A stretch of DNA of 64,000 nt from Escherichia coli (GTDB lineage: Bacteria; Pseudomonadota; Gammaproteobacteria; Enterobacterales; Enterobacteriaceae), in NCBI RefSeq assembly GCF_045037415.1, contig NZ_CP173438.1. One strand, 5' to 3'. Below, in pieces: positions 2,716 through 21,914 of the stretch. The translations under genes were made by a program, and so were the position numbers. Under the pieces are notes generated by a model that worked only from the letters and a program-made list of their open reading frames with translations, was not told the DNA's origin and did not search any database. The first letter of the stretch is position 1, and every line of letters starts with the position of its first letter.

Positions 2716-3870
<1,155 letters not shown>

Positions 3871-3880
3871 GTTTCAGCCT

Positions 3881-5418
<1,538 letters not shown>

Positions 5419-5656
5419 TTATTGTTTTATTACCAAACGGCAATCTAATCTAATCAGATTGAAAGATTTAAAAGTGTTATTTTGATCGCAAAATGAAAGA
5501 TAAATATTTTATTTTGAAAGTTTGTATAAAGAAGGTAGTGAGGAGAATGAGTTGAGTTATGTAAAGTCCGTATCGGGCAGTGACTACCGCTTCCTTGTGC
5601 GGGGCGGGATGCTTTACCATACTTGCCCCTGGTTGAATCTGTTAAATGGACCCCTC

Positions 5657-6742
5657 ATGTTCAAGCGTCGTTATGTAACATTGCTTCCCCTTTTTGTGTT
5701 GCTTGCCGCCTGTAGCAGCAAGCCAAAACCTACTGAGACTGAAACGACCACCGGAACGCCGTCTGGCGGCTTCCTGCTTGAGCCGCAGCACAATGTGATG
5801 CAGATGGGCGGTGACTTCGCCAATAACCCGAATGCCCAGCAGTTCATCGACAAAATGGTGAACAAACACGGTTTCGATCGTCAGCAGTTGCAGGAAATTC
5901 TCTCCCAGGCGAAACGTCTGGATTCGGTACTGCGGCTGATGGATAACCAGGCACCAACCACATCGGTGAAACCGCCATCAGGTCCGAACGGCGCATGGCT
6001 GCGTTATCGCAAAAAATTTATTACGCCGGACAACGTGCAGAACGGTGTGGTTTTCTGGAATCAGTATGAAGATGCGTTGAATCGCGCGTGGCAGGTGTAT
6101 GGTGTACCGCCGGAAATTATCGTCGGGATTATCGGCGTTGAAACCCGCTGGGGGCGCGTGATGGGGAAAACTCGCATTCTCGATGCGCTGGCAACGCTGT
6201 CATTTAATTACCCTCGCCGCGCGGAATATTTTTCAGGTGAGCTGGAAACCTTCCTGCTGATGGCGCGCGACGAGCAGGACGATCCGCTCAATCTGAAAGG
6301 TTCCTTTGCAGGTGCGATGGGTTACGGTCAGTTTATGCCATCGTCTTACAAACAATATGCGGTGGATTTCAGCGGTGACGGGCATATCAACCTGTGGGAT
6401 CCGGTTGATGCCATCGGTAGTGTAGCGAACTATTTCAAAGCGCACGGCTGGGTGAAAGGCGATCAGGTGGCGGTGATGGCAAACGGTCAGGCGCCAGGCT
6501 TACCGAATGGCTTCAAAACCAGGTACAGCATTTCACAACTTGCCGCAGCTGGACTAACGCCGCAGCAGTCGCTGGGGAATCATCAGCAGGCCAGCTTGCT
6601 GCGTCTGGATGTTGGCACTGGTTACCAGTACTGGTATGGTCTGCCGAACTTCTACACTATTACCCGTTATAACCACAGCACTCATTACGCAATGGCGGTC
6701 TGGCAGTTAGGACAGGCCGTGGCGCTGGCGCGCGTGCAGTAA
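5657..6742 (+). CDS. mltB: Membrane-bound lytic murein transglycosylase B
   Basis: Start placed at MFKRRYVTLLPLFVLLAACSS lipoprotein signal (361 aa); the ORF track's longer 5' extension is probably not translated. Confidence 0.88.
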   Translation: MFKRRYVTLLPLFVLLAACSSKPKPTETETTTGTPSGGFLLEPQHNVMQMGGDFANNPNAQQFIDKMVNKHGFDRQQLQEILSQAKRLDSVLRLMDNQAPTTSVKPPSGPNGAWLRYRKKFITPDNVQNGVVFWNQYEDALNRAWQVYGVPPEIIVGIIGVETRWGRVMGKTRILDALATLSFNYPRRAEYFSGELETFLLMARDEQDDPLNLKGSFAGAMGYGQFMPSSYKQYAVDFSGDGHINLWDPVDAIGSVANYFKAHGWVKGDQVAVMANGQAPGLPNGFKTRYSISQLAAAGLTPQQSLGNHQQASLLRLDVGTGYQYWYGLPNFYTITRYNHSTHYAMAVWQLGQAVALARVQ

Positions 6743-6780
6743 CTATTTGCAAGAGGGAGGTTAAACTTCCCTCTGTTATC

Positions 6781-7020
6781 TTACTGTTTATTCGAATGGC
6801 GTAATTGCTTGATTTTTTTCGACAGCGATATCGCATATCCCAGGCAGACAACGCCTAACGCAGCCTGACCGAAGTCAAAAGGTTCAAGATAGCCAGAAGA
6901 TAAAACTTTACATATCACGGAAATCAGTGCGCTGATGCCGCCAATGATGACCCACATACGCATTTGTGTGGTTTGTTTGAGCACGTTTTGTGGGGTGTTA
7001 TCCGTTTTCTTTATTGCCAT
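6781..7020 (-). CDS. Hypothetical small membrane protein (79 aa, two predicted TM segments)
   Basis: Internal ATG of a longer ORF, preceded by GGGAGAG Shine-Dalgarno 7 nt upstream; hydrophobic segments MWVIIGGISALISVICKVL and AALGVVCLGYAISL; not a gene I recognise. Confidence 0.35.
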   Translation of the reverse strand: MAIKKTDNTPQNVLKQTTQMRMWVIIGGISALISVICKVLSSGYLEPFDFGQAALGVVCLGYAISLSKKIKQLRHSNKQ

Positions 7021-7201
7021 TGCTATTCTCTCCCTGTGAATACATATCAATGTGAACGCGGCATGGTAGCGCTTTTTCTCTACCGACTGGCCGCAACAGT
7101 CTTTTTTCGGAACGCGACTCGTAAAATGAATCGCTCGTCCCCATCTTTTGCGGGAAAGTGCTATCTTGTCCGGCATAAATTTTTGACTGACAGAGGTTGT
7201 G

Positions 7202-7695
7202 ATGACTGAAAGTGAACTGATGCAGTTAAGCGAACAGGTTGGGCTGGCGCTGAAAGCCCGTGGCGCAACCGTAACAACTGCTGAGTCTTGTACCGGCGGT
7301 TGGGTAGCGAAAGTGATTACCGATATTGCCGGCAGTTCCGCCTGGTTTGAACGCGGATTTGTCACCTACAGTAACGAAGCAAAAGCGCAAATGATCGGTG
7401 TACGCGAAGAGACGCTGGCGCAGCATGGCGCGGTGAGCGAACCTGTCGTGGTGGAAATGGCGATAGGCGCACTGAAAGCGGCTCGTGCTGATTACGCCGT
7501 GTCTATTAGTGGTATCGCCGGGCCGGATGGCGGCAGTGAAGAGAAGCCTGTCGGCACCGTCTGGTTTGCTTTTGCCACTGCCCGTGGTGAAGGCATTACC
7601 CGGCGGGAATGCTTCAGCGGTGACCGTGATGCGGTGCGTCGTCAGGCTACTGCGTATGCATTGCAGACCTTGTGGCAACAATTTCTACAAAATAC

Positions 7696-7699
<4 letters not shown>
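7202..7699 (+). CDS. pncC: NMN amidohydrolase (CinA C-terminal domain family)
   Basis: 165 aa; GAGGT SD 5 nt before ATG; position upstream of recA. Confidence 0.9.
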
Positions 7700-8840
<1,141 letters not shown>

Positions 8841-8861
8841 TCGTCTTGTTTGATACACAAG

Positions 8862-8890
8862 GGTCGCATCTGCGGCCCTTTTGCTTTTTT
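8862..8890 (+). terminator. Rho-independent terminator downstream of recA
   Basis: GC hairpin gggtcgcatctgcggccc followed by T-run. Confidence 0.6.
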
Positions 8891-8908
8891 AAGTTGTAAG
8901 GATATGCC

Positions 8909-9409
8909 ATGACAGAATCAACATCCCGTCGCCCGGCATATGCTCGCCTGTTGGATCGTGCGGTACGCATTCTGGCGGTGCGCGATCACAGTGAGCAAGA
9001 ACTGCGACGTAAACTCGCGGCACCGATTATGGGCAAAAATGGCCCGGAAGAGATTGATGCCACGGCAGAAGATTACGAGCGCGTTATTGCCTGGTGCCAT
9101 GAACATGGCTATCTTGATGACAGCCGATTTGTTGCGCGCTTTATCGCCAGCCGTAGCCGCAAAGGTTATGGACCTGCGCGTATTTGTCAGGAACTGAATC
9201 AGAAAGGTATTTCCCGCGAAGCGACAGAAAAAGCGATGCGTGAATGTGACATCGACTGGTGCGCACTGGCGCGCGATCAGGCGACGCGAAAATATGGCGA
9301 ACCTTTGCCAACTGTCTTTTCAGAAAAAGTTAAGATCCAGCGTTTTCTGCTCTATCGTGGCTATCTGATGGAAGATATCCAGGATATTTGGCGAAATTTT
9401 GCCGACTGA
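8909..9409 (+). CDS. recX: RecA regulator RecX
   Basis: 166 aa ORF immediately downstream of recA. Confidence 0.93.
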
Positions 9410-9537: not shown

Positions 9538-12168
9538 ATGAGCAAGAGCACCGCTGAGATCCGTCAGGCGTTTCTCGACTTTTTCCATAGTAAGGGACAT
9601 CAGGTAGTTGCCAGCAGCTCCCTGGTACCCCATAACGACCCAACTCTGTTGTTTACCAACGCCGGGATGAACCAGTTCAAGGATGTGTTCCTTGGGCTCG
9701 ACAAGCGTAATTATTCCCGCGCTACCACTTCCCAACGCTGCGTGCGTGCGGGTGGTAAACACAACGATCTGGAAAACGTCGGTTACACCGCGCGTCACCA
9801 TACCTTCTTCGAAATGCTGGGCAACTTCAGCTTCGGCGACTATTTCAAACACGATGCCATTCAGTTTGCATGGGAACTGCTGACCAGCGAAAAATGGTTT
9901 GCCCTGCCGAAAGAGCGTCTGTGGGTTACCGTCTATGAAAGCGACGACGAAGCCTACGAAATCTGGGAAAAAGAAGTAGGGATCCCGCGCGAACGTATTA
10001 TTCGCATCGGCGATAACAAAGGTGCGCCATACGCATCTGACAACTTCTGGCAGATGGGTGACACTGGTCCGTGCGGCCCGTGCACCGAAATCTTCTACGA
10101 TCACGGCGACCACATTTGGGGCGGCCCTCCGGGAAGTCCGGAAGAAGACGGCGACCGCTACATTGAGATCTGGAACATCGTCTTCATGCAGTTCAACCGC
10201 CAGGCCGATGGCACGATGGAACCGCTGCCGAAACCGTCTGTAGATACCGGTATGGGTCTGGAACGTATTGCTGCGGTGCTGCAACACGTTAACTCTAACT
10301 ATGACATCGACCTGTTCCGCACGTTGATCCAGGCGGTAGCGAAAGTCACTGGCGCGACCGATCTGAGCAATAAATCGCTGCGCGTAATCGCTGACCACAT
10401 TCGTTCTTGTGCGTTCCTGATCGCGGATGGCGTAATGCCGTCCAATGAAAACCGTGGTTATGTACTGCGTCGTATCATTCGTCGCGCAGTGCGTCACGGT
10501 AATATGCTCGGCGCGAAAGAAACCTTCTTCTACAAACTGGTTGGTCCGCTAATCGACGTTATGGGCTCTGCGGGTGAAGACCTGAAACGCCAGCAGGCGC
10601 AGGTTGAGCAGGTGCTGAAGACTGAAGAAGAGCAGTTTGCCCGTACTCTGGAGCGCGGTCTGGCGCTGCTGGATGAAGAGCTGGCAAAACTTTCTGGTGA
10701 TACGCTGGATGGTGAAACTGCTTTCCGTCTGTACGACACCTACGGCTTCCCGGTTGACCTGACGGCTGACGTTTGCCGTGAGCGCAACATCAAAGTTGAC
10801 GAAGCTGGTTTTGACGCAGCAATGGAAGAGCAGCGTCGTCGTGCGCGCGAAGCCAGCGGCTTTGGTGCAGATTACAACGCAATGATCCGTGTTGACAGTG
10901 CATCTGAATTTAAAGGCTATGACCATCTGGAACTGAACGGCAAAGTGACTGCGCTGTTTGTTGATGGTAAATCGGTTGATGCCATCAATGCAGGCCAGGA
11001 AGCTGTGGTCGTGCTGGATCAAACGCCATTCTATGCGGAATCCGGCGGTCAGGTTGGTGATAAAGGCGAACTGAAAGGCGCTAACTTCTCCTTCGCGGTG
11101 GAAGATACGCAGAAATACGGCCAGGCGATTGGTCACATCGGTAAACTTGCTGTGGGTTCTCTGAAAGTGGGCGACGCTGTGCAGGCTGATGTTGATGAGG
11201 CTCGTCGCGCCCGTATTCGTCTGAATCACTCCGCAACGCACCTGATGCACGCTGCGCTGCGCCAGGTTCTGGGTACTCATGTATCGCAGAAAGGTTCACT
11301 GGTTAACGACAAAGTGCTGCGCTTCGACTTCTCACACAACGAAGCGATGAAACCAGAAGAGATTCGTGCGGTCGAAGACCTGGTGAACGCGCAGATTCGC
11401 CGTAACTTGCCGATCGAAACCAACATCATGGATCTCGAAGCGGCGAAAGCGAAAGGTGCGATGGCGCTGTTTGGCGAGAAGTATGATGAGCGCGTACGCG
11501 TGCTGAGCATGGGTGATTTCTCCACCGAGTTGTGTGGCGGTACTCACGCCAGCCGCACTGGTGATATTGGTCTGTTCCGCATCATCTCTGAATCGGGTAC
11601 TGCTGCAGGCGTTCGTCGTATCGAAGCGGTAACCGGAGAAGGCGCTATCGCCACCGTTCATGCAGACAGCGATCGCTTAAGCGAAGTCGCGCATCTGCTG
11701 AAAGGCGATAGCAATAATCTGGCTGATAAAGTGCGTTCAGTACTGGAACGTACGCGTCAGCTGGAAAAAGAGTTACAACAGCTTAAAGAACAAGCTGCCG
11801 CACAGGAGAGCGCAAATCTTTCCAGTAAGGCAATTGATGTTAATGGTGTTAAGCTGTTGGTTAGCGAGCTTAGCGGTGTTGAGCCGAAAATGTTGCGTAC
11901 CATGGTTGACGATTTAAAAAATCAGCTGGGGTCGACAATTATCGTGCTGGCAACGGTAGCCGAAGGTAAGGTTTCTCTGATTGCAGGCGTATCTAAGGAC
12001 GTCACAGATCGTGTGAAAGCAGGGGAACTGATTGGTATGGTCGCTCAGCAGGTGGGCGGCAAGGGTGGTGGACGTCCTGACATGGCGCAAGCCGGTGGTA
12101 CGGATGCTGCGGCCTTACCTGCAGCGTTAGCCAGTGTGAAAGGCTGGGTCAGCGCGAAATTGCAATAA
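9538..12168 (+). CDS. alaS: Alanyl-tRNA synthetase
   Basis: 876 aa, class II aaRS motifs and C-terminal editing domain. Confidence 0.97.
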
Positions 12169-12402
12169 TATAAGCGTCAGGCAATGCCGTGGACTCGCTT
12201 CACGGCATTCGCATTAACGCTATCGACAACGATAAAGTCAGGTTGAAGTTGTGTATATCGGCTAAACTTAGGTTTAACAGAATGTAATGCCATGACTGCT
12301 TAGATGTAATGTGTTTGTCATTGCTTACTTTTTGGCGTTATATGATGGATAATGCCGGGATACAGAGAGACCCGACTCTTTTAATCTTTCAAGGAGCAAA
12401 GA

Positions 12403-12588
12403 ATGCTGATTCTGACTCGTCGAGTTGGTGAGACCCTCATGATTGGGGATGAGGTCACCGTGACAGTTTTAGGGGTAAAGGGCAACCAGGTACGTATTGG
12501 CGTAAATGCCCCGAAGGAAGTTTCTGTTCACCGTGAAGAGATCTACCAGCGTATCCAGGCTGAAAAATCCCAGCAGTCCAGTTACTAA
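12403..12588 (+). CDS. csrA: Carbon storage regulator, RNA-binding global regulator
   Basis: 61 aa [18 protein letters not shown]... Confidence 0.97.
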
Positions 12589-12903
12589 TCTTTCCGCGTC
12601 TCATCTTTATCGGTGAGACGCACCCTCAAGATTTCTCTTTCACTCCATTGTCTTTTCGCTTTACTCCCGTTCATTCAACTTAAGTCTCCATTTTTTTGCA
12701 TTACTGCTATCTGTCAGACCTCCGTTTTTCTGTTGATAAAACACTCTTTTTGACGTTTTTACAGACTAATTGAGCGTGAAGTGTGCAAACGATAAAAGTG
12801 TGGGAAAAATTGTTTGACTTATAAGTCTCAGAAAGTAATATGTGCGCCACGCAGCGACGATGAGCGATAAACAAGTTCTTCGAAGCACTCGTAAGAGGCG
12901 TGT

Positions 12904-12996
12904 GGTGAGGTGGCCGAGAGGCTGAAGGCGCTCCCCTGCTAAGGGAGTATGCGGTCAAAAGCTGCATCCGGGGTTCGAATCCCCGCCTCACCGCCA
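12904..12996 (+). tRNA. serV: tRNA-Ser (anticodon GCU)
   Basis: 93-nt cloverleaf with long variable arm, anticodon loop CTGCTAA, 3' CCA encoded. Confidence 0.93.
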
Positions 12997-14813: not shown

Positions 14814-16397
<1,584 letters not shown>

Positions 16398-16406
16398 CAG
16401 AAAAGA

Positions 16407-16479
16407 AAAAGGCCACTCGTGAGTGGCCAAAATTTCATCTCTGAATTCAGGGATGATGATAACAAATGCGCGTCTTTCA
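16407..16479 (-). ncRNA. micA: MicA (SraD) small regulatory RNA
   Basis: Reverse complement reads GAAAGACGCGCATTTGTTATCATCATCCCTGAATTCAGAGATGAAATTTTGGCCACTCACGAGTGGCCTTTTT, matching the MicA sequence as I recall it, with intrinsic terminator. Confidence 0.85.
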
Positions 16480-16546: not shown

Positions 16547-17062
16547 ATGCCGTTGTTAGATAGCTTCACAGTCGATCATACCCGGATGGAAGCGCCTGCA
16601 GTTCGGGTGGCGAAAACAATGAACACCCCGCATGGCGACGCAATCACCGTGTTCGATCTGCGCTTCTGCGTGCCGAACAAAGAAGTGATGCCAGAAAGAG
16701 GGATCCATACCCTGGAGCACCTGTTTGCTGGTTTTATGCGTAACCATCTTAACGGTAATGGCGTAGAGATTATCGATATCTCGCCAATGGGCTGCCGCAC
16801 CGGTTTTTATATGAGTCTGATTGGTACGCCAGATGAGCAGCGTGTCGCTGATGCCTGGAAAGCGGCAATGGAAGACGTGCTGAAAGTGCAGGATCAGAAT
16901 CAGATCCCGGAACTGAACGTCTACCAGTGTGGCACTTACCAGATGCACTCGTTGCAGGAAGCGCAGGATATTGCGCGTAACATTCTGGAACGTGACGTGC
17001 GCATCAACAGCAACGAAGAACTGGCGCTGCCGAAAGAGAAGTTGCAGGAACTGCACATTTAG
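16547..17062 (+). CDS. luxS: S-ribosylhomocysteine lyase (AI-2 synthase)
   Basis: 171 aa, HTLEHL metal-binding motif. Confidence 0.96.
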
Positions 17063-17070
17063 TCAGTTTA

Positions 17071-17107
17071 AGCAGAAGAGGCCGGGCTGGTGAAAACACC
17101 GCCCGGC
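17071..17107 (+). terminator. luxS intrinsic terminator
   Basis: 7-bp stem gccgggc...gcccggc followed by TTTTG. Confidence 0.7.
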
Positions 17108-17112
17108 TTTTG

Positions 17113-18225
17113 TTACCTGTCAGTCATCCGATATTCCACGCTATGTGCTTCATCAGGTTGAGGAACTTCCAGCCTTGAGGCCATCCGCATCACGACCGCT
17201 TCAGGAACTGCATACTCGCGTCTGGCATTTTGCTGGTTCCATTGCGCCCATGGCACTTCCAGATAAACGATTTTTACTCGTGCGCCGTAAGCCGTAAACA
17301 GACTGATGAGCTGGCTGCGCAGCTGGCGGGTAATGTTCGTTGCATTCCAGATGAACGGCTTTTTCTGGCGTAAAAAAACGCGCGCCTCTTCTTTTGCCTG
17401 TTGCACAATACGCCCGGTGGCGGTTTTGTCGTCCGGACTGGCATTGATTCGCCGCCGCATATCATCAAGGCTGATAACGTCCATTCCCTGGCACTGTTCA
17501 CTGATATAGCGATCTTTGCCCATACCCGGTAAGCCACACAGCAAAATAACCTCAAAAGGTTCAGCCTCCCAGGGAACAAAATCAGGAGAACTTTGCTCAT
17601 GAGTCAGGTAGTGCCAGCGTGCGGAATCAGAAACGAACGGGCGCATTTTTCCCCAGCATTGTTGCTCATGGCAAAACAGCTCGAACAGATCGATGCGTTC
17701 CAGCATTGATTGCTGATCCGGGCTTTGGCGACCAAGCAGATCGGCACGAGCAAGCAAAGCGAGCAGACGCGTGTCGATGCGCATTGCAGCCGTGAGCAAC
17801 AAACGCTCCGGTTCCGGACGTTCCAGTAACCATAGCGGTAACCCATGCAGACGCACCAGTGCAACAATTTGCTCGCGCAGCACGAACGGCGTTGGGATAT
17901 CGCGCCATAAAATTTGTCGAGCCGTCAGTTCGCCCCGACGAGCATGACCAGGAGACTGAATACGTCCGTTTTCCTGCACGGTAGTGCTGCGCTTTTCAAC
18001 ATCATGCAATAACGCCGCCGCCCATAAAACTTCCTGCTGTTGAGCGGGGAGTTGCTGGAATTCTGGCAGAGTAATGAGGGCGTTAAGCACCATTTCGGTA
18101 TGTACGCCGACGTCGCCTTCACCATGATGCTCAGGGTCTTGTGGCGTGTGATGCATCTCCTCAACCCAGCTAAAACGCTGACGTAGCGCCGACCAGCGTT
18201 TATCGTCGGTAAGTTGCCAAATCAT
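17113..18225 (-). CDS. Predicted bifunctional RNA/DNA end-healing enzyme: N-terminal HD phosphohydrolase plus C-terminal P-loop polynucleotide kinase (HD-Pnk-like)
   Basis: 370 aa; HD motifs [12 protein letters not shown] and LLHDVEK (H74-D75); Walker A-like GLPGMGKD at 17512-17535; GGAG SD; ATGA overlap with upstream ligase gene; no counterpart at this locus in K-12 as I recall it. Confidence 0.6.
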
Positions 18226-18929
18226 GACTGTTCTCCATAAACGAACTCATGGGCCATCCGCGCCCGTTGCCAGTGGCGTTTCCAGTGCACAGTGGTTTTG
18301 ACATGATTTTTGCGCACATACTTGAAGACGTTATGCGAAAAGTCAGCGACAGAAAACGCATCATGATTTCGGCTGACAATGCCTTCCAGCGTACAGGGTT
18401 GACAGGTTTGCGTATCCCAGGGATCGAATGTGCCGCGCGCATTGGTCAGCGCCAGAAAATCACGTTGCCAGCTTTTTTCATCATTCCCCGGCTGCGGGCC
18501 GGAGATTTCGGGAACGCAGGGGAAATCAAACAGAGCGGCGTAAAACTGCACCTCTTCCCAGCTCAGCCACATATCCTGGCAGCGAACGGCAAACAGGTAA
18601 AAGTCCTGTTCCAGCGCGCGGTATTCAATGGAATGAACGGCGTAGAGATTTTCACCAAACAACTCCAGGTTGCCGAGATCGTTTTTCAGCAGTTGCCAGC
18701 GTTGGCGAATTTTATAGGTCCATGCCGACTGCGTAGGCGTGGCATGGGAGCGGGCAAACACGCCGTAGCGGTTAAGGCAGTTATTTTCGCCATCGAGTTT
18801 TTCTGTGTGCACCAATTGCGTGATGGTCTGTAAATCCTGCCAGTAATCGGTGTTAATGCGGTCATCGCTGGTGGTGCCTGGAGAGAAGGGGTAATGCCAG
18901 GTTCTCCCGTATTTACGTTGGGTATTCAT
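18222..18929 (-). CDS. Predicted ATP-dependent RNA ligase, minimal nucleotidyltransferase domain
   Basis: 235 aa; motif I KLDG (K44, codons at 18789-18800), motif III-like FGE, motif IV LEGIV, motif V KYVRK. Confidence 0.55.
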
Positions 18930-19150
18930 AATAATCCATTATTTTGTGTGTAATAAATGTACGCCCGCGAGGGTGCGAGTTTTGGGGTTAAAAGAAAAAT
19001 GTGAGTATCACCCGCGAAAGCGAGGGCGAAGGAAAAAGAGAATTAACAACCTGAGCGAATGCTCAGAACCGGCTAATGGTGAATGGAAGAGTTTGGGGCG
19101 GCGAAAAGATACACCGAATGAGTGTATAAAACAACCGTTTGCAGAATGAG

Positions 19151-19179
19151 CAAATAAAAAGGGAGCCGCAGCTCCCTTT
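19151..19179 (-). terminator. emrB intrinsic terminator
   Basis: On minus strand: hairpin gggagctgcggctccc followed by TTTTTATTTG, directly after emrB stop. Confidence 0.7.
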
Positions 19180-19186
19180 GGCAACC

Positions 19187-20725
19187 TTAGTGCGCACCGC
19201 CTCCGCCGCCACCTGCGCCAAATGGCGGTTTAGCAAACCACACCAGCCCCAGCAGGACGAGGAATATCCCGGCTGACATCCAGAAGATCTCATTGGCGGA
19301 AATAATCAGCCCCTGATTGGTTATCTGCTGGGCAATCCAGCCTGATGCCTGCTGTTGCGTCATACCAAGCCCTTCCAGTTGACTGTACATCGCCTGAGCA
19401 TTCGGGTTGAACGGGTTTACCGACTCAGTCAACTGTGCATGGTGCAGCGACTCGCGGTTGGTCCACATGGTCGTGGTTATCGACGTGCCGATAGACCCCG
19501 CCAGCGTTCGCGTAAAGTTGGAGAGGCTCGATGCCGCCGCCAGTCGTTCCGGTGGCAAACCGGACAGCGTAATGGTGGTCAGCGGCATAAAGAAGCAGGC
19601 CACCGCAAAACCCTGGATAAACTGTGGCCAGGCCGACGCGCCAAAATCCATACCCGGTTCAAAGGTATAGGCACGCCAGTAGAAGCAGACGGCATACATA
19701 ATAAAGCTGAAGGTTACCAGTCGGCGCATATCCAGTTTATGCGCGAAGCGGCCGATAATCGGCGACAGGATCACCGGAATAATCCCTACCGGCGCAGAGG
19801 CCAGCCCTGCCCACGTCGCCGTGTAACCGTAGACCTCCTGCAACAACTGCGGCAGCAGAACAATCGCGCCGAAGTAGAGCATATACGCGAGGCTGATACA
19901 CAAGCAGCCGATGGTGAAGTTGCGCGACTTAAACAACGACAGATCGACTATCGGGTTATCGTCGGTCAGCTCCCAGACAATCAGGAAGCAGATAGCCACC
20001 ACCGCCACCACGGTGAGGATGATAATTTCCTGTGATGAGAACCAGTCCAGCTCTTTACCGCGGTCGAGCATAATCTGCAGGCTGCCGATACCAATAACCA
20101 GCAGTGCCAGCCCCACGGCATCAATCCGCCGCCGTTCGGTGCGGGTTTCACGTCCGCGCAGAGTTTGCAGTGTCATCAACACCACCGCCACGCCAATCGG
20201 CACGTTGATGAAGAATATCCAGCCCCAGTGGTAATTATCACTGATATAACCGCCGAGGATCGGGCCGCAAATTGGCGCAACAATCACCGTCATCGACCAC
20301 AACGCCAGCGCGATCGAGCGTTTGGCTGGCGGGTAGTTATTCAGCAATAGACTTTGCGAAAGCGGAATTAACGGCCCGGCGACAATCCCCTGAATCACGC
20401 GGAAGAAGATCAGCATATTCAGGCTGCTGGAGACACCACACGCCCACGACGCAATAGCAAAGGCGATGGTGGACCAGAGGAACAGTTTCACTTCCCCGAC
20501 GCGCTTTGCCAGCCAGCCGGTAAGCGGGATCGAGATGGCATTCGCCACCCCGAAAGAAGTGATTACCCACGTTCCCTGGCTGAGCGATGAGCCCAGATTC
20601 CCGGCGATAGTGGGGATCGCCACGTTAGCAATGGTGGAGTCCAGCACCTGCATGAATGTCGCCAGTGACAGCGCAATCGTCATAATGACCAGTTGTGCGC
20701 CTTCCAGCGGTTTTTGCTGTTGCAT
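19187..20725 (-). CDS. emrB: Multidrug efflux MFS transporter, 14-TM permease subunit
   Basis: 512 aa from MQQQKPLEGAQ; downstream of emrA. Confidence 0.93.
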   Translation of the reverse strand: MQQQKPLEGAQLVIMTIALSLATFMQVLDSTIANVAIPTIAGNLGSSLSQGTWVITSFGVANAISIPLTGWLAKRVGEVKLFLWSTIAFAIASWACGVSSSLNMLIFFRVIQGIVAGPLIPLSQSLLLNNYPPAKRSIALALWSMTVIVAPICGPILGGYISDNYHWGWIFFINVPIGVAVVLMTLQTLRGRETRTERRRIDAVGLALLVIGIGSLQIMLDRGKELDWFSSQEIIILTVVAVVAICFLIVWELTDDNPIVDLSLFKSRNFTIGCLCISLAYMLYFGAIVLLPQLLQEVYGYTATWAGLASAPVGIIPVILSPIIGRFAHKLDMRRLVTFSFIMYAVCFYWRAYTFEPGMDFGASAWPQFIQGFAVACFFMPLTTITLSGLPPERLAAASSLSNFTRTLAGSIGTSITTTMWTNRESLHHAQLTESVNPFNPNAQAMYSQLEGLGMTQQQASGWIAQQITNQGLIISANEIFWMSAGIFLVLLGLVWFAKPPFGAGGGGGGAH

Positions 20726-20741
20726 CACACGCACCTCTGGA

Positions 20742-21914
20742 TTAGCCAGCGTTAGCTTTTACGATATCGTCGATCAGTTTATTGACAGGTGCCAGGCTGA
20801 TTTCACGCGCGGTGCTTACCGCGACCGGTGTGGAACGTACTTTGTTTGCCAGTACCTGACCGTCACGGTTAGTGGTATTGACACTCACCAGCGTGGATAA
20901 ACCGATACGCAGCGGGTATTGCTCCAGCTGTTTCTGGTCCAGTTCAATACGCACAGGCAGACGCTGAACGACTTTGATCCAGTTACCGGTGGCGTTTTGC
21001 GCCGGAAGCAGTGAGAACGCGCTACCTGTGCCCATATCCAGACCAACCACTTTACCGGTGTATTTCACATCATCGCCGTAAATATCGGTGGTGATGGTGA
21101 CCGGTTGACCGATACGCATATTGGCAATCTGCGTCTCTTTAAAGTTGGCATCCACCCACATATTGGTGGCTGGAACGACCGCCATCAGCGGCGTCGTTGG
21201 GCTAATTTGCGCCCCAGGCTGTACCGCGCGGCGGGAGACATAACCGGTCATCGGACTGACAATACGGGTACGCTCCAGCGCCAGCCAGGCGTTACGTACT
21301 TCGGTGGCAGCCTGTTGTACGGCAGGCTGATCTTCCAGTTTCGTCCCCAGAATCATCGCCTGATTGGCATTGTATTGTTGAATAGCGACGTCCAGTTGCG
21401 CCTGGGCACTGGTGACGGCGTCGCGGGCGTGTTGCAGCTCTTCGCGACCAATCAGGTTGGCATTGCCCAGCGGCACACGGCGGTTGTAGTCGCTTTGTGC
21501 TTTCGCGAGGGCGATTTTTTGCACCTCAATATTCGCCTGCAACTGTTTGCTGTTAATCATCAGCTGGTGGGTTTGGCGAACGCTGGAAGCCAGTGCAGTT
21601 TTGGCTTTTTCAAACGCCTGGCGAGCATCTGTCGGGTCGAGAGTGACCAGCACGTCGCCTTCTTTTACAAAATCGGTGTTATCGGCCCAGACTTTCGTCA
21701 CGCTGCCAGACACCTGAGACATAATTTGAATCTGATTCCCTGCCACGTATGCGTCATCGGTTTCTTCGAAATGACGCAGTACCAAAAACCAATAAATCCC
21801 TATCGCTACGGCAATAATTATAAAGAGCAAGGTGAGAAGGAGGAGCAGACGCTTACGTTTGCCGCTCTTCTTTACCGGTTGCTGCGGGGTTTGAGTCTCC
21901 GCATTTGCGCTCAT
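20742..21914 (-). CDS. emrA: Multidrug efflux membrane fusion protein
   Basis: 390 aa from MSANAETQ; single N-terminal TM plus coiled-coil. Confidence 0.93.
   Translation of the reverse strand: MSANAETQTPQQPVKKSGKRKRLLLLLTLLFIIIAVAIGIYWFLVLRHFEETDDAYVAGNQIQIMSQVSGSVTKVWADNTDFVKEGDVLVTLDPTDARQAFEKAKTALASSVRQTHQLMINSKQLQANIEVQKIALAKAQSDYNRRVPLGNANLIGREELQHARDAVTSAQAQLDVAIQQYNANQAMILGTKLEDQPAVQQAATEVRNAWLALERTRIVSPMTGYVSRRAVQPGAQISPTTPLMAVVPATNMWVDANFKETQIANMRIGQPVTITTDIYGDDVKYTGKVVGLDMGTGSAFSLLPAQNATGNWIKVVQRLPVRIELDQKQLEQYPLRIGLSTLVSVNTTNRDGQVLANKVRSTPVAVSTAREISLAPVNKLIDDIVKANAG

Follow-up and report, generated by a model that had tools for sequence, protein, structure and literature searches.

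Two bacterial systems have been described in which a ligase-type protein (LIG) is encoded together with HD-Pnk, a protein combining an HD domain with a P-loop kinase domain. In Runella slithyformis, studied in the Shuman laboratory, the open reading frame (ORF) of a putative ATP-dependent ligase overlaps the start of the HD-Pnk ORF; HD-Pnk is summarized as a bifunctional 2',3'-phosphoesterase and 5'-OH kinase, and the ligase forms ligase-AMP and sealed none of the substrates tried (PMC6097658). In Deinococcus radiodurans the corresponding genes are DR_B0100 (LigB/DdrP) and DR_B0098. The latter is a 5' polynucleotide kinase that phosphorylates a DNA oligonucleotide, while DR_B0100 binds AMP through K40, loses this binding in the K40A mutant, and alone joins neither DNA nor RNA (PMC1997131). 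The DR_B0100-DR_B0099-DR_B0098 operon is induced by radiation, with loss of HD-Pnk causing sensitivity to ionizing radiation and mitomycin C (PMC6300522), and its middle gene is of the PARG hydrolase type, for which removal of ADP-ribose from the ends of nucleic acids was recently proposed (PMC11833690). Here we analyze a two-gene cassette lying between luxS and emrB in a 64,000-nucleotide stretch of Escherichia coli DNA (contig NZ_CP173438.1, hereafter the window), and show that this locus is the E. coli member of the known LIG/HD-Pnk family.

The cassette is the Enterobacteriaceae version of this end-healing family and probably acts as an RNA heal-and-seal unit. In this model a transesterifying RNase (ribotoxin, colicin, anticodon nuclease or toxin-antitoxin RNase) or chemical damage would leave 2',3'-cyclic-phosphate or 3'/2'-phosphate ends together with 5'-OH ends. 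The HD domain of HD-Pnk would clear the 2',3'-cyclic, 3' or 2' phosphate, its P-loop domain would phosphorylate the 5'-OH, and the co-translated LIG, carrying AMP on Lys44, would then act on the healed ends (3'-OH and 5'-phosphate), by joining them or in some other way. The targets would most likely be RNAs of the translation machinery, either tRNA or rRNA. The kinase and phosphoesterase activities of HD-Pnk and the autoadenylylation of LIG are assigned here by analogy with the published homologues. An earlier note on the window, made from the sequence alone, had also proposed heal-and-seal RNA repair; the healing half of this proposal is well supported, while we infer the RNA substrate, the biological trigger and the sealing step. 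The locus is arranged as follows, in window coordinates:

14841-16397, plus strand: gshA (ORF list and sequence of the window)
16407-16478, minus strand: MicA small RNA (Rfam RF00078, 83.9 bits), between gshA and luxS at the position expected from K-12
16547-17062, plus strand: luxS (ORF list)
17081-17112, no strand assigned: GC-rich hairpin and T-run between the convergent luxS and HD-Pnk stops (read from the sequence)
17113-18225, minus strand: HD-Pnk gene, 370 amino acids (RefSeq WP_000638136.1, "ATP-binding protein")
18222-18225, minus strand: ATGA stop/start overlap of LIG and HD-Pnk (sequence)
18222-18929, minus strand: LIG gene, 235 amino acids (RefSeq WP_001097132.1, "RNA ligase family protein")
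18930-19157, minus strand: non-coding leader upstream of LIG (alignment across genera)
19158-19179, minus strand: intrinsic terminator of emrB (terminator scan), the upstream edge of the cassette
19187-20734, minus strand: emrB (ORF list)

The ORF list and the raw sequence confirm the two minus-strand genes with an ATGA overlap that the earlier note had placed between luxS and emrB, and the ORF list holds no further gene there. The overlap reads TCAT on the plus strand at 18222-18225, which is ATGA on the minus strand, where the stop codon TGA of LIG overlaps the start codon ATG of HD-Pnk by 4 nt. This suggests that the two genes may be translationally coupled, and a tight or overlapping junction is also found in related loci. 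Both ORFs can be taken as real genes because they have strong Pfam matches, thousands of homologues and a ratio of nonsynonymous to synonymous divergence (dN/dS) of 0.05-0.15. RefSeq labels HD-Pnk only "ATP-binding protein" or "AAA family ATPase". Between the convergent stops, GCCGGGC (17081-17087) and GCCCGGC (17101-17107) form a hairpin that is followed by TTTT and by the HD-Pnk stop codon TAA (17113-17115); it is probably the terminator for both luxS and HD-Pnk, and was missed by the terminator scan because its loop is 13 nt long. The terminator of emrB consists of GGGAGC-TGCG-GCTCCC followed by TTTTT. The whole luxS-emrB spacer is 2,124 bp here (17063-19186) against 63 bp with one hairpin in K-12 W3110, in agreement with the short K-12 spacer described in the earlier note. 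Similarity to K-12 ends within a few bases of the luxS stop and returns at the emrB stop, and the hairpin at 17081-17112 stands in place of the single K-12 spacer hairpin.

The upstream gene, previously read as a nucleotidyltransferase ligase, matches the Pfam family RNA_ligase (PF09414) with an E value of 1.6e-27 over residues 38-205, corresponding to model positions 2-171 of 171. Ligase motifs I, III, IIIa, IV and V are all present and are invariant in an alignment of 40 relatives, with motif I reading K44-L-D-G-E-N and the others including F-G-E93-N, E182-G-I-V and F-K203-Y-V-R. An N-terminal segment beginning K-Y-G-R-T, which precedes motif I and lies outside the Pfam match, is also invariant in these relatives. 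The predicted structure (predicted local distance difference test, pLDDT, 80) is a single domain, and the solved folds nearest to it are Naegleria Rnl, T4 Rnl2, the ligase domain of fungal Trl1, archaeal Rnl3 and trypanosome REL1. The template modeling (TM) scores of these matches are only about 0.5, with identities of 15-21%, and LIG is therefore predicted to be a bare, stand-alone ATP-dependent nucleotidyltransferase domain outside the well-studied ligase clades. In the predicted structure and fold comparison it is without the extra domains by which other RNA ligases hold their substrate. A sequence search of the PDB with LIG gave only repeat matches to mollusc hemocyanin, which were set aside as spurious in favor of the Pfam and fold results.

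The downstream gene encodes the fusion of an HD domain and a P-loop kinase that had been read from its translation. The C-terminal half matches Pfam AAA_33 (PF13671) with an E value of 1.6e-31 over residues 226-355, and by sequence also matches the kinase of Clostridium thermocellum Pnkp and T4 Pnk. The match to Pfam HD (PF01966) is weak in the E. coli protein (E = 0.017), but 34 of 37 family members match at E ≤ 0.001, and the predicted ligands H34, H42, H74-D75, H94, H127 and D162 are invariant in the 37 relatives, so that the N-terminal half is assigned as a metal-dependent HD phosphoesterase. Profile searches thus recovered all three Pfam families that had been predicted for the pair. The kinase half carries the P-loop G-L-P-G-M-G-K237-D238 followed by L-D254-x-x-R257, of which the lysine and D-x-x-R do not vary among HD-Pnk relatives. 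The P-loop (residues 232-238, about 17512-17532 in the window) has Lys-Asp (GKD) at its end rather than the usual Lys-Ser/Thr; GKD is invariant in the enterobacterial and Bacteroidota subfamily, while the Deinococcus enzyme has GKS. In the structural model (pLDDT 91) the C-terminal half is nearest to polynucleotide kinases, including mammalian PNKP, and the N-terminal half to a class II tRNA nucleotidyltransferase. The NCBIfam search agrees with this fold result, as it matches the N-terminal half to the HD region of a CCA-adding enzyme.

Comparison with Deinococcus supports the family assignment. HD-Pnk aligns over residues 5-361 with DR_B0098 at 30% identity (E = 4e-34), H74-D75 falling on H81-D82, and LIG aligns over its full length with DR_B0100 at 34% identity (E = 3e-27), K44 falling on K40, so that the two alignments indicate full-length homology of the pair to DR_B0100 and DR_B0098. 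In both organisms the gene order runs from ligase to HD-kinase, the ligases are bare adenylyltransferase domains, and the catalytic lysine, the HD motif and the kinase motifs are held in common. In contrast to the Deinococcus operon, which is radiation-induced, lies on a megaplasmid and has a PARG/macro-type gene between the two, the E. coli genes occupy a chromosomal site, overlap without a middle gene and encode GKD, not GKS. Closer relatives of the E. coli cassette also have RNA-repair genes as neighbors, unlike the Deinococcus operon. The Runella pair that the earlier note had mentioned proved to be real, and its gene order and overlapping ORFs are exactly those of this locus (PMC6097658). 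By its published description it shares the N-terminal HD 2',3'-phosphoesterase, the C-terminal 5'-OH kinase and the ligase ORF directly upstream, and differs in having Tpt1 and a methyltransferase-HIT gene just upstream, both of which E. coli lacks (PMC6097658). A protein search seeded with an Emticicia homologue named no Runella protein, and two candidate contexts did not correspond to the Runella-type cluster. The LIG/HD-Pnk pair is present in four genera of Runella's family, Emticicia, Dyadobacter, Spirosoma and Larkinella, and Bacteroidota hold HD-Pnk relatives 50-59% identical to the E. coli protein.

More broadly, a close relative is encoded in 430 of about 100,000 species-representative genomes, mostly of Bacteroidota and Enterobacterales. 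Distant relatives (30-47% identity) are found on large replicons of Deinococcus, Ralstonia, Variovorax, rhizobia, Bacillus cereus, Streptomyces and cyanobacteria, and jumbo phages carry LIG relatives with 32-44% identity. Gene neighborhoods were counted in the best 80 loci from the 430 species, and Runella is not among these 80. In every one of them LIG immediately precedes HD-Pnk, with both genes in the same orientation. RtcB is a neighbor in 29 loci (in 27 it is co-directional and no more than about 5.5 kb away), PrfH in 13 (NCBIfam release_prfH, above cut-off), a pair of RlaP-like nucleotidyltransferases in four (family judged by eye) and Tpt1 in two (Dysgonomonas L069 and L036). Compact rtcB-prfH-LIG-HD-Pnk operons occur in Serratia, several Bacteroides, Mucilaginibacter, Taibaiella and Adhaeribacter, and in Dysgonomonas the order is rtcB-prfH-tpt1-LIG-HD-Pnk. 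Among the neighbors that recur across unrelated taxa in these 80 loci only RNA-repair genes were found, and no recurrent DNA-repair gene. Short-chain dehydrogenases, response regulators and Xenorhabdus housekeeping genes were rejected as partners, their recurrence being lineage synteny.

The presence of RtcB, often with PrfH, near the cassette in 29 of the 80 loci favors RNA repair. RtcB2 and PrfH have been proven to rescue and re-ligate ribosomes cut in their 16S rRNA by colicin E3 (PMC9304027, PMC9223846). No mention of a link between LIG/HD-Pnk and rtcB-prfH was found in the papers searched on RtcB2/PrfH or on release-factor evolution, a search that did not take in the 2016 survey of Burroughs and Aravind. 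The RtcB2-PrfH system shares with the present model the logic of repairing translation RNA cut by ribotoxins, and in Serratia, Bacteroides, Mucilaginibacter, Taibaiella, Dysgonomonas and Adhaeribacter it forms one operon with LIG-HD-Pnk, but its chemistry is unrelated and neither rtcB nor prfH is present in the window. RtcB joins a 3'-phosphate or cyclic phosphate directly to a 5'-OH with GTP. As RtcB joins unhealed ends and is frequently fused into one operon with LIG/HD-Pnk, the two routes may cover different end chemistries of the same damaged RNAs, for example ends aged to 2'-phosphate or 3'-OH, which are of no use to RtcB.

Some of these loci contain further genes. RlaP-type gene pairs adjoin LIG-HD-Pnk or RtcB in locus L012 (4748-6447), in L019 and L024 (about 11300-12940) and in L010 (about 19240-20895); no NCBIfam model matched these RlaP-like pairs. 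In Bacteroidota of the Ohtaekwangia type the gene after RtcB encodes a protein of about 700 amino acids with a P-loop ATPase and an FtsH-like HEXXH protease region, and in L010, L011 and L016 (about 4200-9000) a hydrophobic protein of 392 amino acids stands after it and before LIG-HD-Pnk. An ATPase/HEXXH-type protein is encoded downstream of HD-Pnk in L017 and L037, and it is possible that this protein is a further accessory of RNA-repair operons.

T4 Pnkp with Rnl1, bacterial Pnkp/Hen1 and fungal Trl1 also bring together a 5' kinase, a 3'-end phosphoesterase and an ATP-dependent ligase, and their kinase domains are related to that of HD-Pnk. The phosphoesterase, however, belongs to the HD superfamily here, unlike in any of these systems: it is of the HAD/DxDxT type in T4, a binuclear metallophosphoesterase in bacterial Pnkp and a 2H enzyme in Trl1. 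The division of domains between polypeptides differs from all three; bacterial Pnkp/Hen1 has a single kinase-phosphatase-ligase polypeptide with Hen1, whereas the E. coli cassette has two proteins and no Hen1. The bacterial Pnkp model matches HD-Pnk in the kinase part only, at 32.7 bits against a cut-off of 750. Neither protein matched a PADLOC defense model at E ≤ 0.1, which leaves no basis for naming the cassette a catalogued defense system.

The spacer upstream of LIG is 257 nt long and, judged by its conservation, is not neutral. A block of about 95 nt (window 19041-19136, minus strand) shows 75-83% identity when E. coli is compared with Citrobacter, Salmonella, Klebsiella and Phytobacter, genera in which the rest of the leader reaches 46-69%; in a divergent Enterobacter species the block is 56% identical. 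It is confined to cassette-bearing Enterobacteriaceae. The block contains promoter-like hexamers, TTGTTT (19134-19129) and TATCTT (19111-19106), spaced 17 nt apart, and continues through CGCCGCCCC and then CTTCCATTCAC to CCGGTT-CTGAGC-loop-GCTCAG-GTTGTT. CTGAGC (19066-19061) and GCTCAG (19056-19051) form the stem of a hairpin with GTTGTT as a U-rich tail, and in an alignment of seven genera and metagenome contigs this stem is invariant and the loop variable. The terminator scan flagged 19051-19066 as terminator-like, and a minimum free energy z-score of -3.3 was obtained. No Rfam family matched the leader. RNAalifold detected no covariation or compensatory changes in it, and for this reason no structural claim is made past the one invariant hairpin. 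The block might serve as an attenuating leader or give rise to a small RNA. In E. coli the hairpin also reads as CTG-N10-CAG, and a LexA box was considered and rejected because the spacing varies between genera. The hairpin motif had 39 matches in metagenomes, ten of them with the cassette adjacent; the other 29 were treated as chance.

Several observations weigh against RNA heal-and-seal repair by this cassette. Both characterized LIG homologues form ligase-AMP and joined no DNA or RNA on which they were tested (PMC1997131, PMC6097658), so that the word "seal" is unproven for the family. The phenotypes known in vivo for this family, the sensitivity of the Deinococcus mutant to ionizing radiation and mitomycin C, point at least equally to DNA damage (PMC6300522). 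No match to rtcB, prfH or tpt1 was obtained anywhere in the window; the cassettes of E. coli and its close relatives stand alone, and the RNA-repair context is thus borrowed from relatives that are only 50-65% identical. The likeness to Runella is one of published gene order and architecture. The aspartate that replaces Ser/Thr in the P-loop may also count on this side.

It might be argued that the cassette mends DNA strand breaks, a role that has been put forward for the Deinococcus operon, with HD-Pnk cleaning the ends left by oxidation or radiation (removing the 3'-phosphate and phosphorylating the 5'-OH) and LIG, possibly with a partner, sealing the nick. We regard this explanation as unlikely, yet it is the alternative that survives best. 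In its favor, mammalian PNKP, which repairs DNA, is among the fold matches of the kinase, and Munir and Shuman (2017) reportedly saw Runella HD-Pnk act on DNA 3'-phosphate ends as well. The phosphorylation of a DNA oligonucleotide by DR_B0098 (PMC1997131), the radiation induction of its operon and the sensitivity of the HD-Pnk mutant (PMC6300522) are all consistent with it. The radiation phenotype does not discriminate, however, because loss of the Deinococcus RNA ligase Rnl also gives one (PMC6300522). Set against DNA repair are the recurrent neighbors of the closer subfamily, which in the 80 loci are RtcB, PrfH, Tpt1 and RlaP-like proteins and never DNA-repair genes, as well as the nearest solved folds of LIG, all of which are RNA ligases, and the resemblance of the HD half to a tRNA CCA-adding enzyme. 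The leader alignment, read by eye, likewise contains no LexA-type box with conserved spacing.

A second alternative concerns LIG, which would be no conventional strand-joiner: its AMP could pass to some different acceptor, or it could depend on an end of an unusual kind, on a specific folded RNA or on a partner protein, and the pair would then modify or mark ends. This is a rather less likely explanation. It accommodates the bare nucleotidyltransferase domain without substrate-holding additions, the invariant N-terminal segment outside the Pfam match, and the adenylylation without ligation of two independent homologues (PMC6097658, PMC1997131). The company that the family keeps can be read in the same way, as it adjoins Tpt1 in Runella (PMC6097658) and Dysgonomonas, and a PARG-type ADP-ribose hydrolase in Deinococcus (PMC11833690). 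On the other hand, all ligase motifs are conserved, including motifs IV and V of the later steps, and the strict coupling to an enzyme that makes 3'-OH and 5'-phosphate ends, the very ends on which a classic ligase works, has ligation as its simplest explanation. Ligation of DNA by DR_B0100 was reported in one study when DR_B0098 and PprA were added (PMC6300522).

A more speculative proposal, to which we give lower credence again, is that LIG is a ligase with unconventional demands on its end or substrate. It might call for a 2'-phosphate, like the tRNA ligases of fungi and plants, or for a break within an assembled ribosome or a folded tRNA. The ligase of fungal Trl1 requires a 2'-phosphate end. 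Together with HD-Pnk, such a ligase would constitute a second, RtcB-independent route in bacteria for repairing translation RNA damaged by ribotoxins. If so, the route might give a substrate in E. coli carriers to the orphan KptA (Tpt1), which removes junction 2'-phosphates, and the conserved leader could be a damage-responsive switch for the cassette.

A survey of complete genomes shows how the cassette is distributed. It is present in 999 of 5,426 complete E. coli genomes as one chromosomal copy with 90-100% identity to the window, and in none of the 5,426 on a plasmid. Carriers include ST131, O2:K2:H1, O145:H28 and E. coli W, while among the complete genomes K-12 and O157 are without it, and both genes are among the annotated features of every carrier genome listed. 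The emrB-luxS interval also contains the cassette in E. albertii, Citrobacter amalonaticus, Klebsiella spallanzanii and one Enterobacter species, and in Salmonella enterica and Phytobacter massiliensis the cassette follows emrB directly. The more distant the relative, the lower the protein identity, which is 92-93% for E. albertii and 71-84% for the other genera. Between E. coli and E. albertii the cassette has a synonymous divergence (dS) of 0.22-0.50, compared with 0.25-0.33 in the flanking luxS and emrB; the cassette dN/dS is 0.05-0.15, and its guanine-plus-cytosine (GC) content is host-like.

The shared locus across genera, the purifying selection and the divergence in step with the flanks identify the cassette as an old module and not a recent insertion. 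These comparisons make it old at the emrB-luxS site and ancestral in Enterobacteriaceae, where selection has preserved it and repeated losses have left most lineages of E. coli, K-12 among them, without it. Accordingly, the idea in the earlier note that an old accessory module has disappeared from part of the lineages finds support in the shared locus, dS and dN/dS, whereas the description of the cassette as "inserted" does not. A simple insertion with target-site duplication was rejected, as the whole spacer differs from that of K-12 and no flanking direct repeats are seen in the comparison. That the cassette is a recent horizontal arrival or a functionless, decaying remnant is suggested by its absence from 82% of complete E. 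coli genomes, K-12 among them, but is so improbable as to be effectively refuted by the same locus in seven genera, dS like that of the flanking core genes, low dN/dS, host-like GC content, the absence of an E. coli plasmid copy, the annotation of both genes in every carrier listed, and the less than 65% identity of the closest phage and plasmid relatives.

The K-12 arrangement reflects either loss of the cassette or a second old haplotype; it is not the empty site of the ancestor. The hairpin of the K-12 W3110 spacer (464-526), GCCAGTTCAAATGAACTGGC, resembles the Salmonella emrB terminator (about 3650-3690), GCCAGTTCATGGGAACTGGC, and is unlike the emrB terminator of cassette-bearing E. coli, GGGAGCTGCGGCTCCC. 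From this pattern of resemblance, the forms with and without the cassette may be old, separately evolving haplotypes rather than the outcome of a simple recent deletion. In a single E. coli genome, Ecol_542 (NZ_CP018970.1), only 64% of the cassette query aligns (at 100% identity), and the match overlaps a feature annotated as a major facilitator superfamily (MFS) transporter, which suggests local rearrangement or truncation. An E. coli-like metagenome contig, with cassette proteins about 96% identical to those of the window, has an additional ORF of 466 amino acids on the opposite strand between emrB and the leader (L100, 6236-7636). Other accessory genes also seem able to settle at the luxS-emrB site.

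As a rule E. coli is described as having neither a polynucleotide kinase nor an ATP-dependent RNA ligase, and this assumption served as a purity control in one of the studies of the Deinococcus homologue (PMC1997131). This is true of laboratory strains but not of about 18% of sequenced strains, and the exceptions include E. coli W and the pandemic lineage ST131. In two organisms biochemistry has failed to assign a reaction to the ligase family, and the natural E. coli carriers offer an easy genetic system in which to look for its substrate and the stress to which it responds, with the operon fusion to rtcB-prfH in other bacteria providing a concrete lead toward ribosomes or tRNAs that have been damaged. 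Should the cassette turn out to give protection from colicins or from contact-dependent RNase toxins, it would also be relevant to how E. coli lineages compete in the gut. The value of the finding is practical, as it places an unsolved enzyme family, with a possible link to the repair of ribosomes or tRNA, in the most tractable bacterium.

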